NCBI GenBank assembly: GCA_040389365.1
Contig: JAZKAB010000001.1
Location: forward strand, 1 to 41,551
Source of the DNA: Patescibacteria group bacterium
GTDB taxonomy: Bacteria; Patescibacteriota; Minisyncoccia; Phycocordibacterales; UBA9973
Length of the DNA stretch: 41,551 bases
Direction: 5' to 3'
Every line of letters starts with the position of its first letter. Position 1 is the first letter of the stretch. Under the pieces are notes generated by a model, which saw only the letters and a program-made list of their open reading frames with translations, did no database searches and had not been told where the DNA came from. Below, piece after piece: positions 1-3,111 of this stretch. A program made the translations under genes and the position numbers.

Positions 1-32
1 GAGTAATATCTGCCGTAATTTGTAGTATACTA

Positions 33-251
33 GTTGGCTGTCGTATTGAATCTGGCAGCATCACTGACGGCGCAAAGGTGTCAGTGATTCGTCGTGAATT
101 CAACCTGACAACAGGTACTGTTGTTGAACTGCAACAGGCTAAGCAGAAGGTACGCGAAGTAACTGAGGGAGAATGTGGCATTCTTGTTGAATGTAAAAAC
201 GACATTGCTCCTGGTGACATCTTAGAAGCATTTATCTTCGTAACAAAGTAA
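33..251 (+). pseudogene. infB: 3' fragment of a second, diverged translation initiation factor IF-2 gene (domain IV/C2 only)
   Basis: Frame 3 reads VGCRIESGSITDGAKVSVIRREFNLTTGTVVELQQAKQKVREVTEGECGILVECKNDIAPGDILEAFIFVTK*, collinear with the C-terminus of the minus-strand infB. Codons upstream of ~33 (VISAVICSIL) do not match the resident FSKTKERQV. The stop overlaps the rbfA ATG (TAATG). Confidence 0.85.
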
Positions 252-592
252 TGACACAACTAGCAGCAAAACAGTCACCACGTGACCAGAAGATTGAAGA
301 ACAGGTAAAAGAAATGGCTGCTCGTGTTATCGAACGCGAAAGCAACAAGACTGCACTCATCACAGTTAACCGTGTTGAACTCTTCGAGAAAGGTCGTCGC
401 GCTACTATCTACATCACAGTCATGCCAGAAACTGGTGAAGAGTCAGCCTTGAACTTCCTCAAGCGCAAGCGAGCAGACATGCGTGACGAGATCAAGAAGC
501 ATCTCAAGATCCGTACTATTCCTTTCCTAGATGTTGAAATAGACCTCGGGGAAAAGGCTAGTCGACGTATCGACGAACTGTTGAAACAATAG
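251..592 (+). CDS. rbfA: 30S ribosome-binding factor A (copy 2, diverged)
   Basis: 113 aa directly after infB; LITVNRVEL, AxIYITV and IRTIPFL motifs of the RbfA KH fold. Confidence 0.9.
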   Translation: MTQLAAKQSPRDQKIEEQVKEMAARVIERESNKTALITVNRVELFEKGRRATIYITVMPETGEESALNFLKRKRADMRDEIKKHLKIRTIPFLDVEIDLGEKASRRIDELLKQ

Positions 593-616
593 TAAGATAG
601 GGAGACCTGAATTTCA

Positions 617-688
617 GGTCTGGTGGCCAAGTGGTAAGGCGGTTCTCTGCAAAAGAACTATACGCGAGTTCGATTCTCGCCCAGACCT
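617..688 (+). tRNA. tRNA-Cys (GCA)
   Basis: Acceptor stem GGTCTGG/CCAGACC, anticodon loop CTGCAAA, T-loop GTTCGATTC, U discriminator. Confidence 0.95.
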
Positions 689-718
689 CCGTACTGTTTA
701 ACAATACGAATAGTTAAT

Positions 719-801
719 GCCCGAGTGGTGGAATGGTAGACACGAGACACTTAAAATGTCTTCCGCATTTGCGGGTGTGGGTTCGAGTCCCACCCCGGGC
801 A
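719..801 (+). tRNA. tRNA-Leu (TAA)
   Basis: GCCCGAG...CCCGGGCA, D-loop GGAATGGTAGAC, anticodon loop CTTAAAA, long variable arm; one A.C mismatch in the acceptor stem. Confidence 0.9.
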
Positions 802-810
802 CAAGGCTGT

Positions 811-842
811 TGAAATAAAATACCTTTTAGGGTATTATTTCA
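811..842 (+). terminator. AT-rich imperfect hairpin between tRNA genes
   Basis: TGAAATAAAATACC-TTTTAG-GGTATTATTTCA. Confidence 0.4.
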
Positions 843-859
843 CTTGCTGTGTACAAAGT

Positions 860-941
860 GCTGGGATGGTGGAATTGGTATACACGTTAGTCTTAGGAAC
901 TAATGCCGCAAGGCTTGGGAGTTCAAGTCTCCCTCCCAGCA
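860..941 (+). tRNA. tRNA-Leu (TAG)
   Basis: Acceptor GCTGGGA/TCCCAGC, anticodon arm TTAGT-CTTAGGA-ACTAA, variable arm GCCGCAAGGC. Confidence 0.95.
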
Positions 942-959
942 CTTTAGATGCAAGATAAT

Positions 960-1035
960 GCCCTCATAACTCAGTTGGTAGAGTAGCTCCCTCTTAAGGA
1001 GATTGTCGCAGGTTCGAGTCCTGCTGGGGGCACCA
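960..1035 (+). tRNA. tRNA-Lys (CTT), CCA encoded
   Basis: Acceptor GCCCTCA/TGGGGGC, anticodon loop CTCTTAA, T-arm GCAGG-TTCGAGT-CCTGC, ends ACCA. Confidence 0.93.
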
Positions 1036-1037
1036 CA

Positions 1038-1080
1038 TAATGCAAAAGGCGCTAGATTGAATCTAGCGCCTTTTGCATTA
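1038..1080. repeat. 43-bp inverted repeat (21-bp perfect arms); likely bidirectional terminator between convergent tRNA arrays
   Basis: TAATGCAAAAGGCGCTAGATT-G-AATCTAGCGCCTTTTGCATTA. Confidence 0.9.
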
Positions 1081-1087
1081 CTTTATG

Positions 1088-1170
1088 TGCCCGAGGTGGG
1101 ACTCGAACCCACACGCCGGTGAGGGCAGAGAATTTTAAGTCCTCCGTGTCTACCATTCCACCACTCGGGC
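1088..1170 (-). tRNA. tRNA-Leu (TAA)
   Basis: Reverse complement GCCCGAGTGGTGGAATGGTAGACACGGAGGA-CTTAAAA-TTCTC...GGTTCGAGTCCCACCTCGGGCA. Confidence 0.95.
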
Positions 1171-1195
1171 AATGTTCTTTTCATACACGATTGTA

Positions 1196-1270
1196 TGGAG
1201 GTCTGGGCGAGAATCGAACTCGCGTATAGTTCTTTTGCAGAGAACCGCCTTACCACTTGGCCACCAGACC
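1196..1270 (-). tRNA. tRNA-Cys (GCA), CCA encoded
   Basis: Identical in body to 617-688; ends TCCA. Confidence 0.95.
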
Positions 1271-1295
1271 GTACCTGTACGGCTACCCTATAGTA

Positions 1296-1625
1296 CTATT
1301 CTTTCAGCAGCTCGTCGATATGGCGTCGAGCCTTTTCTCCCAGGTCAATTTCAGCATCAAGGAAGGGGATAGTGCGGATGTTGAGCCGATCCTTCACTTC
1401 TTCTCGAATTTCCTTGCGCTTGCGCTTTAGGAAGTTGATCGCTGAATCTTCGCCGCTTTCAGGCAACACCGAGATATAAAGCATGGCCTTGCGGCCGCGC
1501 TCGAAGAGCTCAACGCGAGTGATGGTGATAAGGGCAGTCTTGTTGCTCTCGCGCTCGATAACGCGAGCAGCGATTTCTCGGATCTGATCCTGGATCTTGT
1601 CGGTTCTGCTGCTTTGAATAGTCAT
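1296..1625 (-). CDS. rbfA: 30S ribosome-binding factor A (resident copy)
   Basis: Follows infB; start moved to the ATG at 1625, just after the infB stop; LITITRVEL and IRTIPFL motifs. Confidence 0.9.
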   Translation of the reverse strand: MTIQSSRTDKIQDQIREIAARVIERESNKTALITITRVELFERGRKAMLYISVLPESGEDSAINFLKRKRKEIREEVKDRLNIRTIPFLDAEIDLGEKARRHIDELLKE

Positions 1626-1626
1626 A

Positions 1627-3111
1627 TTATTTAGAGGTGAAGATAAACGCTTCAAGCATGTCGCCAGGAGCGATATCGTTCTTGCATTCTACCAATATGC
1701 CGCATTCGCCGTCGCTTACTTCCTTAACCTTGTGCTTGGCCTGCTGCAGTTCAACGACGGTCCCTGTTGTCAGCATGAAGTCGCGGCGAATCACCGATAC
1801 CTTTGCGCCGTCAGTGATGACGCCTGACTCAATGCGGCAGCCGAGCACCTGGCGCTCTTTGGTCTTTGAAAAGGTCTTCAATACCTTTGCGGTGCCAATC
1901 ACTTATCTCGTCTCAACGCGAGGGCGACGAGCCTCAAGTTCAACCTCAAGCCATTCGGTCAGCTTGTAGATAATGTCGAAGGTCTGAATGGTTGCCTGTA
2001 CCTTTTCTTGAATGTCCTGAGCGCTCTTGTCGAGCTGCACGTTGAATCCTAGGATAATAGTATCCTTGTCGCCCTGGGCCTGCTTGATGTCTGTCTCGCC
2101 AATGTTGCCGATGGCCTTGGTGACAATCTTGATATGCAAGCCCTCGATATTCATCTTCTTGATTTCCTTCTCAACAGCCTCAACGGTGCCGAATACGTCT
2201 GCCTTGATGATAATAGGCACAACCTTTTCGCCAGACTTCGGGCGGTCTTCCTTGCTGTAGTCAGCGGTATGGCCTTCCTTGATATAGTCTTCAGCGTCGC
2301 GCTTCTTGTCGAATACCTTTACCGGTACGCCAACTTCTGGCAGTCGGTCAAAGCCGACAAGCTGCACTGGCGTGCCAGGGTCAGCGTCAGCAATTGTCTT
2401 GCCCAAGAAGTTTTCCATAATGCGGGTTGTGGTAATCGCAGTGCCTGCAACGACAAATTGGCTTTTCTTCAAGGTGCCGTTCTTCACCATCAGCGTTGCG
2501 GTAATGCCGCGCTTTGGGTCAAGGCGAGATTCAATAATGATGCCTTCAGCGTGCGCTGAAGGGTCAGCAGTAAGTTCTTCAAGGTCTGCAACCAATAGGA
2601 TTGTTTCTAAGAGCTCGTCTATGCCTGTGCCTTCCTTTGCAGAAATAGGCACCCAAGAGATGTTGCCGCCATAGCCTTCAACCATAACCTGCTGTTCAGC
2701 AAGCATCTGCTTGGCCTTTTCGATGTTTGCTCCTGGCCGGTCAATCTTGTTTATAGCGACGATAAAGGGAATCTTGGCGTCGCGAATAGTGTTAAGGGCT
2801 TCGATAGTCTGCGCCTTAACGCCGTCTTCAGCTGAGACCATAAGAATGGCAATGTCAGCTGCAACAGCGCCGCGCTCGCGCATGCCGGTAAAGGCAGCGT
2901 GGCCAGGAGTGTCGAGGAAGGTGATGCGGCGATTTTCGCCCTGGTAGGGAATAGTGATGGCATACGCGCTCAAATGCTGCGTAATGCCGCCCGCTTCTCC
3001 AGCCGTAACGTTAGTCTTGCGAATGTAGTCGAGCAGCGTCGATTTGCCATGGTCGATGTGACCCATGACTGCGACTACTGGCGGGCGAGTTGTGGTGTGT
3101 GGTGTGTTCAT
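1627..3111 (-). CDS. infB: Translation initiation factor IF-2 (short form), interrupted by an in-frame TAA at 1903-1905
   Basis: RPPVVAVMGHIDHGKSTLLD, GGITQH, DTPGH, NKID, IIKADVFGTVEA. ORFs 1903-3111 and 1627-1902 are in the same frame, separated only by TAA (…ETR*VIGTAKV…). Confidence 0.93.

Follow-up and report, generated by a model that had tools for sequence, protein, structure and literature searches.

An inverted second infB-rbfA-tRNA copy at a Patescibacteria scaffold tip is very probably a metagenomic mis-assembly of three organisms

Does a bacterium with a reduced genome carry a second, diverged copy of the end of infB, of rbfA, and of the tRNA genes behind them, laid out as a mirror image of its own? 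This question is raised by the left end of the window analyzed here, which spans 41,551 bases from base 1 of scaffold C1 onward and thus begins at the scaffold tip, in a metagenome-assembled genome (MAG) of the Patescibacteria. The bin comprises 14 scaffolds with a total of 728,632 bases and has an estimated completeness of 96.95%; the small genome and the initiation factor IF2 of 494 residues are in keeping with the taxonomic label. Taken at face value, the locus would mean that a reduced genome has a duplicated rbfA, a split infB, foreign tRNA genes, and genes captured at tRNA sites. Most likely, all four are products of the assembly. The second copy would, with high probability, not be DNA of the organism represented by the bin (the resident), but a metagenome mis-assembly composed of a betaproteobacterium, a sibling species of the same genus (lineage A), and the resident.

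The tRNA genes were called with ARAGORN, and these calls together with inverted sequence similarities bear out the description in the initial annotation that the order infB end, rbfA, tRNA-Cys, and tRNA-Leu(taa) is doubled in mirror image (Table 1). Bases 36 to 252 are 78% identical to 1626 to 1842, bases 290 to 602 are 74% identical to 1286 to 1598, and bases 617 to 694 are 99% identical to 1193 to 1270. The details read from the letters alone also hold. The two RbfA proteins, estimated to be about 70% identical, show 71% identity over residues 8 to 113; the tRNA-Cys bodies are identical (74 of 74 bases), and the differences between the two tRNA-Leu(taa) genes lie in their anticodon stems and variable arms. 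The copy on the plus strand, referred to as the plus copy, indeed contains the additional genes tRNA-Leu(tag) and tRNA-Lys(ctt), of which no others were found among the 33 tRNA genes on the 14 scaffolds, and its similarity to infB ends abruptly, at about base 34. The 43-bp palindrome between the copies is present with perfect arms (1038 to 1058 and 1060 to 1080, i.e., 21 + 1 + 21 bases). One point needs correction: the two halves are not symmetric around this palindrome. The tRNA pair and the palindrome also belong to the resident-type arrangement in relatives.

The composition of the plus copy is foreign. As stated previously, CGT accounts for 7 of the 12 arginine codons in the plus rbfA and for 0 of 14 in the resident rbfA (counted from its ATG); for the two copies, the counts are 10/16 and 0/17. 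Genome-wide, CGT represents 11% of the arginine codons (349 long open frames of the bin), and a share of 58% was reached by none of 643 stop-to-stop frames with at least 150 codons and at least eight arginine codons, taken from all six reading frames with spurious ones included. The G+C content at third codon positions is 0.43 in the plus copy, 0.63 in the resident copy, and 0.53 in the genome. Overall GC content was considered as a discriminator as well and discarded: the values of 0.44 to 0.47 in bases 1 to 1000 versus about 0.51 in bases 1000 to 2400 lie within the spread of the window and are not decisive.

For comparison, 51 genomes of the genus were used (50 other than the bin), and the locus was matched in 41 of the others. 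From base 34 to base 1038, the plus copy shows 90.7% DNA identity over 1013 columns to one of these genomes, G045, with the same gene order, compared with about 76% to the resident copy; for bases 34 to 860, the identity to G045 is 92% among the 51 genomes. Feature by feature, the agreement with G045 amounts to 182/198 columns for the infB end (55 to 250), 74/74 for tRNA-Cys, 82/84 for tRNA-Leu(taa), 52/57 for the promoter spacer, and 83/83 for tRNA-Leu(tag), which is also 100% identical to G017 and G024, and it drops to 6/21 columns in the spacer 943 to 959 and to 66/76 in tRNA-Lys; beyond base 1038 no similarity to G045 is recognizable. In G045 itself, infB, rbfA, and the tRNA genes Cys, Leu(taa), Leu(tag), and Lys(ctt) all run in one direction, with an intact infB upstream. 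A phylogeny of both copies, which had been proposed as a check, placed them in different species clades: in a 16-row tree of the IF2 C terminus and RbfA, G045 is the sister of the plus copy (support 99/97, 97.7% protein identity), and the resident copy, to which the plus copy is only 76.7% identical, groups with G044, G022, G008, G018, and G001. The locus gives a single match in 39 of the 41 other genomes, and where two matches occur, in G006 and G024, they come from a single locus that is split or matched in neighboring pieces, with no second copy. In the bin, a match to the G045 locus at about 91% was obtained for C1:34-1038 and for nothing else.

The infB fragment of the plus copy reaches 46.2 bits with TIGR00487, below the whole-protein cut-off of 424.4. 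The two RbfA copies score 32.3 and 26.6 bits with TIGR00082, below the cut-off of 51.15; both match the model over its full length (E-values of 1e-7 and 7e-6), and both genes lie directly behind infB, as in the relatives examined. Within bases 1 to 1100, the infB fragment and rbfA are the only open frames of at least 50 codons with a family match; no integrase is among them. Att-like direct repeats were also not found, the sole direct repeats being T-arm similarities among the tRNAs.

To the left of the plus copy, the scaffold tip has yet another origin. The 35-mer at bases 1 to 35 occurs exactly in seven records of a species-genome collection, namely, six of Undibacterium and one Pseudomonadota MAG, and is absent from the 50 other genomes of the genus even with up to three mismatches allowed. 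In all seven records, it consists of the last codon of a gene, the stop codon, and the spacer behind, and the gene ahead encodes elongation factor EF-Tu (TIGR00485, 754.5 bits versus a cut-off of 522.4). Exact identity with the window spans bases 1 to 51 in five Undibacterium loci, 1 to 47 in one locus, and 1 to 54, at 100%, in the Pseudomonadota MAG locus (L052). When three Undibacterium loci were searched against Rfam, no family was matched that would make bases 1 to 35 part of a known RNA. G045 matches 17 of 21 bases in 34 to 54 and only 7 of 33 in 1 to 33. As the similarity to its infB starts at base 34, a word of 19 to 21 bases (34 to 54) is compatible with both sources. By our own arithmetic (0.7 Mb × 4 Mb × 2/4^20, i.e., about 5), a few words of about 20 bases common to two genomes of such sizes are expected by chance. 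None of the contigs listed from independent assemblies covers bases 1 to 53; the first record of run X1 begins at base 54, and the uncovered part proves nothing.

The right end of the foreign piece is contested by another scaffold of the same bin, C8, whose last 34 bases (C8:47356-47389) are exactly bases 855 to 888 of the window. Ahead of this overlap, C8 carries its own promoter (TTGAAA, 17 bases, TATTAT) in a region that is 81 to 87% identical to that ahead of tRNA-Leu(tag) in G022, G018, and G008, whereas window bases 803 to 859 represent the G045 version of the same promoter. When C8 is read in the infB direction, its genes occur past the tRNA pair, with strand conserved, in G045, G044, G053, G023, G018, and G014. 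In G008, C8 matches within its first 140 bases only (tRNA and promoter), and for G006, G062, G057, and G003, the DNA examined contains no match of at least 35 residues to the C8 genes. C8 and bases 1 to 854 thus compete for one junction, and the gene order seen beyond the tRNA pair in relatives favors C8, which, judging from sequence, would be the true neighbor of the resident locus and already present in the bin. Colinearity between relatives and the window was found both to the left and to the right of the stretch 855 to 1040.

Independent contigs gave a similar picture. They are Logan contigs from the runs X1, X2, X6, and X3, and all statements refer to the contigs listed. X1 holds a share of 0.68 of the sampled window words and each of the other 19 listed runs at most 0.14, with small shares in X3 to X20. 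In both X1 and X6, contigs with the C8 tail enter at base 855. One X1 contig covers bases 620 to 884, and another branches off at base 1040 and continues into a different terminator that resembles the one of G045. In X6, the C8-type junction is present, and bases 1 to 668 are uncovered. A repeat common to two genomes produces forks of the kind seen at 855 and 1040. In X3, a contig of a colinear-type relative matches bases 806 to 1039 and then exits, the match there comprising only the conserved tRNA stretch. The drop in identity to G045 behind tRNA-Leu(tag) had been taken to place the second joint inside this gene; this placement was given up, as the X3 contig, which is of the colinear type, carries the exact tRNA-Lys of the window. 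The cover of bases 1171 to 1495 in X1 is nearly absent (bin depths of 2.83 and 0.24), and nothing is drawn from this hole.

An explanation of the mirror image is offered by the layouts of the tRNA pair within the genus. In the 41 other genomes, tRNA-Leu(taa), tRNA-Leu(tag), and tRNA-Lys run in one direction in 15 cases (colinear), and the pair is inverted, converging on tRNA-Leu(taa), in 12; two are partial convergent cases, one (G017) has a larger inversion, and in 11 the contig ends or no pair is found within 1.5 kb. The convergent half of the mirror therefore appears to be the normal locus of the resident: from bases 842, 848, and 860, respectively, G018, G022, and G023 match the window colinearly to about base 1945, across the palindrome. 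In the sister species G006 and G053, a clean in-place inversion of the pair with colinear flanks is evident, and no inverted repeats flanking the pair were seen in this comparison. On a tree of IF2 and RbfA (42 rows, built by a quick method, with 28 classified rows, i.e., 27 relatives and the resident), the orientation requires at least eight changes, six of them forced by well-supported branches; the number is no lower than with shuffled labels. The tRNA-Leu(tag)/tRNA-Lys(ctt) pair has been inverted repeatedly within the genus.

The palindrome fits into the same layout. Intrinsic terminators that act in both directions occur between convergent genes. Like these, the 43-base palindrome has a G+C stem that is flanked by an A tract and, opposite to it, a T tract, and is located between converging tRNA genes; the terminator scan calls it terminator-like. 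It differs from them in its unusually long perfect arms, which characterize the genus. The position was compared in the window and 29 relatives: in most loci of the genus, tRNA-Lys is followed by a perfect hairpin flanked by A and T tracts, with a median arm length of 16 bases, arms of at least 16 bases in 17/30 loci and of at least 20 in 9/30, and a maximum of 32 (G006). Since long hairpins are common behind tRNA-Lys and relatives are colinear across the palindrome, the latter would be a native two-way terminator rather than the axis of a fold-back. The initial annotation had placed the junction of the two copies at this axis; the joints appear to lie elsewhere, in bases 34 to 54 and within 855 to 1040.

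The following scheme would account for the locus. At short words that they have in common, three co-sampled organisms would have been linked by the assembler, such that the first 850 to 1040 bases or so of the scaffold are foreign to the resident genome. Bases 1 to 54 would be the end of an Undibacterium-type tuf gene and the DNA behind, joined via the chance word at 34 to 54 to the 3' end of infB of lineage A. In this lineage, the layout would be colinear, i.e., infB, rbfA, tRNA-Cys, tRNA-Leu(taa), promoter, tRNA-Leu(tag), and tRNA-Lys(ctt). Inside the shared tRNA-Leu(tag)/tRNA-Lys(ctt) stretch, this piece would have been joined to the resident, in which the pair with its promoter and terminator is presumably inverted and converges on tRNA-Leu(taa), tRNA-Cys, rbfA, and infB, and the true resident chromosome would run from base 855 leftwards into C8. 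Since the shared tRNA pair is oriented oppositely in the two lineages, superimposing the colinear and convergent loci on it would create the mirror image. Three features expected of a chimera were found: the foreign segments (1 to 54 by exact identity, 34 to 1038 by identity and tree) are closer to other organisms than to the host, the joints fall into sequence shared by the sources (the word at 34 to 54 and the conserved tRNA pair), and a true neighbor competes for the junction, both as C8 and as C8-type contigs in two runs. The alternative formulated in the initial annotation, capture or a two-organism chimera, is thus upheld with respect to the chimera, yet with three sources instead of two.

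For MAG assemblies, chimeras, fragments derived from other genomes, and the retention of non-unique sequence at the ends of scaffolds have been described (Chen et al. 2020, Genome Res, PMC7111523). The present case is similar in its position at a scaffold end, in its joints within sequence shared by co-sampled genomes (a chance word about 20 bases long and conserved tRNA genes), in the second contig of the bin that stops inside the same non-unique stretch, and in that each piece is better matched in another organism. It differs in that three organisms of two phyla are combined within 1 kb and opposite orientations of a tRNA pair imitate an inverted duplication.

Several observations weigh against this explanation. 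The mis-joining by the assembler is inferred; observed directly were the origin of each piece, the competing contig, the forks, and the native status of both layouts. The estimated contamination of the bin is merely 0.14%. In X1, the depths of the plus-copy contigs (2.3 and 3.76) and of the resident contigs (3.74 to 9.67) touch and lend weak support, and in X2 they are equally low (2.6 to 2.8 for the plus part versus 2.1 to 3.5 for the resident), which would also fit a single genome. The X1 contigs listed neither bridge nor exclude bases 884 to 1496. The crossover at the second joint is bounded only to 855 to 1040, and the resident would need to share at least about 30 bases to the left of base 1041 with lineage A, including five beyond the tRNA. 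Finally, a scan of Joint Genome Institute (JGI) metagenome contigs with the plus RbfA revealed no near-identical independent assembly of lineage A, the best of 23 loci showing 80% protein identity.

One alternative is a real capture, in which the resident or a subpopulation of it acquired a sibling infB-rbfA-tRNA fragment of approximately 0.8 to 1 kb by recombination in conserved tRNA genes and would thereby have gained an additional, diverged rbfA along with spare tRNA genes. The plus rbfA is an intact open frame accompanied by its own tRNA genes and a promoter-like site, tRNA genes offer identical sequence for recombination, and both parts occur together in X1 and X2, at equally low depth in the latter. 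We nevertheless regard such a capture as very unlikely, in view of the outer flank with 54 bases identical to a betaproteobacterial tuf terminus, the claim of C8 from the same bin to the junction at 855 with a gene order that fits relatives, the C8-type junction without the fragment in X6, the failure to find an integrase or att-like direct repeats, and the lack of a second copy in all other genomes of the genus with a match. The more specific proposal that the DNA was captured at a tRNA 3' end likewise found no support: of the hallmarks of tRNA-targeted islands, no integrase or recombinase gene was detected among the open frames in bases 1 to 1100, the tRNA 3' end was not seen to recur as a direct repeat at the two borders, and the position is claimed by C8. 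Genomic islands at tRNA 3' ends resemble the locus in that foreign-looking DNA with a different codon usage lies beside tRNA genes, but here no integrase and no duplicated tRNA 3' end as att site are present, the cargo comprises only orthologous housekeeping genes, and the outer flank is betaproteobacterial. That the plus copy is an integrated orthologous rbfA-tRNA module from a sibling species, providing an ultra-small bacterium with a second, diverged ribosome-maturation factor, seems highly improbable.

Similarly improbable is a join made only at the scaffolding or binning stage, with the plus piece being a true contig of lineage A that was attached to C1 by something other than the contig assembler. 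Runs of N in the scaffolds of the bin show that a scaffolder was used, and the forks at 855 and 1040 would suit this variant; however, no such run separates bases 1 to 1040 from the rest of the window, the sequence being continuous through the shared tRNA pair, and the outcome would be the same, as the piece would still not be resident DNA. An old inverted duplication by fold-back in the resident lineage with later divergence of the arms, suggested by the mirror-image gene order around a perfect palindrome, can practically be dismissed, since the plus copy is sister to G045 instead of the resident copy (the tree itself excludes this origin, in agreement with the earlier judgment that the copies are too diverged), the arms are only 74 to 78% identical and asymmetric with two extra tRNA genes on one side, the palindrome is of a terminator type common in the genus, and none of the other genomes with a match has two copies.

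The apparent split of the resident infB is a separate matter. The piece at 1906 to 3111 matches TIGR00487 with 398.1 bits (positions 83 to 477) and that at 1630 to 1902 with 61.8 bits (positions 491 to 579); together they cover the GTPase and C-terminal domains of IF-2, while each alone stays below the whole-protein cut-off given above. In an independent X1 contig (depth 7.38), base 1905 is C, resulting in GAA (Glu) instead of the in-frame TAA, and the corresponding codon is GAA in 11 of 14 relatives and ACC, AAC, or AAG in the other three. Rather than marking a split gene, the TAA probably represents a minor allele or an error of the assembly.

For the public MAG, bases C1:1-854 should be trimmed, 855 to 1040 be treated as shared sequence of uncertain origin, and the end of C8 be joined to C1 at 855, which closes one gap. 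The second rbfA should not be counted as a paralogue, and the TAA in infB is to be considered unconfirmed. More generally, the case shows that sibling lineages with oppositely oriented tRNA pairs can mimic an inverted duplication when they are co-assembled.

Table 1. Features at the left end of the window, with the evidence for each
Feature	Position	Strand	Evidence
Last codon (GAG), stop codon (TAA), and downstream spacer of EF-Tu gene (tuf)	1-54	+	Exact word matches
Joint 1, word of 19 to 21 bases common to betaproteobacterial spacer and sibling infB	34-54	+	Similarity to G045 starts at 34, identity to L052 stops at 54
infB 3' fragment of lineage A, 71 codons and stop	36-251	+	IF-2 model positions 511-579 of 587
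rbfA of lineage A, 113 codons	251-592	+	RbfA models match below cut-offs; 307/342 bases identical to G045
tRNA-Cys(gca)	617-690	+	ARAGORN
tRNA-Leu(taa)	719-802	+	ARAGORN
Lineage-A spacer with promoter-like site (TTGAAA, 17 bases, TATTAT) at 810-838	803-859	+	Promoter scan; ahead of tRNA-Leu(tag)
Stretch common to lineage A and resident with tRNA-Leu(tag) and tRNA-Lys(ctt); joint 2 somewhere inside	855-1040	+	C8 overlap, forks in X1 and X6
tRNA-Leu(tag)	860-942	+	ARAGORN
tRNA-Lys(ctt)	960-1035	+	ARAGORN
Putative native two-way hairpin terminator with perfect 21-base arms, between converging tRNA-Lys(ctt) and tRNA-Leu(taa)	1038-1080		Palindrome and terminator scan
tRNA-Leu(taa), resident	1087-1170	-	ARAGORN; colinear with G018, G022, G008, G023
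tRNA-Cys(gca), resident	1196-1270	-	ARAGORN; colinear with G018, G022, G008, G023
rbfA, resident, 109 codons from ATG at 1625	1296-1625	-	91.7% protein identity to G022
infB, resident, with in-frame TAA at 1903-1905	1627-3111	-	IF-2 model matches

Some further observations concern the individual genes and the tRNA pair. For the resident rbfA, a TTG at 1655, upstream of the ATG, is also open. Across the genus, the promoter, the tRNA genes Leu(tag) and Lys(ctt), and the hairpin terminator form a unit that is found in both orientations beside tRNA-Leu(taa). The larger inversion in G017 (locus L014) takes in tRNA-Leu(taa) as well, so that tRNA-Cys is in forward orientation, followed by Leu(taa), Lys(ctt), and Leu(tag) in reverse. 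In 10 of 30 loci, the left hairpin arm runs at least four bases into the 3' end of tRNA-Lys, which places this 3' end in inverted copy past the terminator as well. The tRNA-Lys(ctt) gene has 76 bases according to ARAGORN in the window, G045, G053, and G044, compared with 74 in other relatives, and its discriminator base is followed by CCA in the window and G045 and by CAA in G018, G022, and G023.

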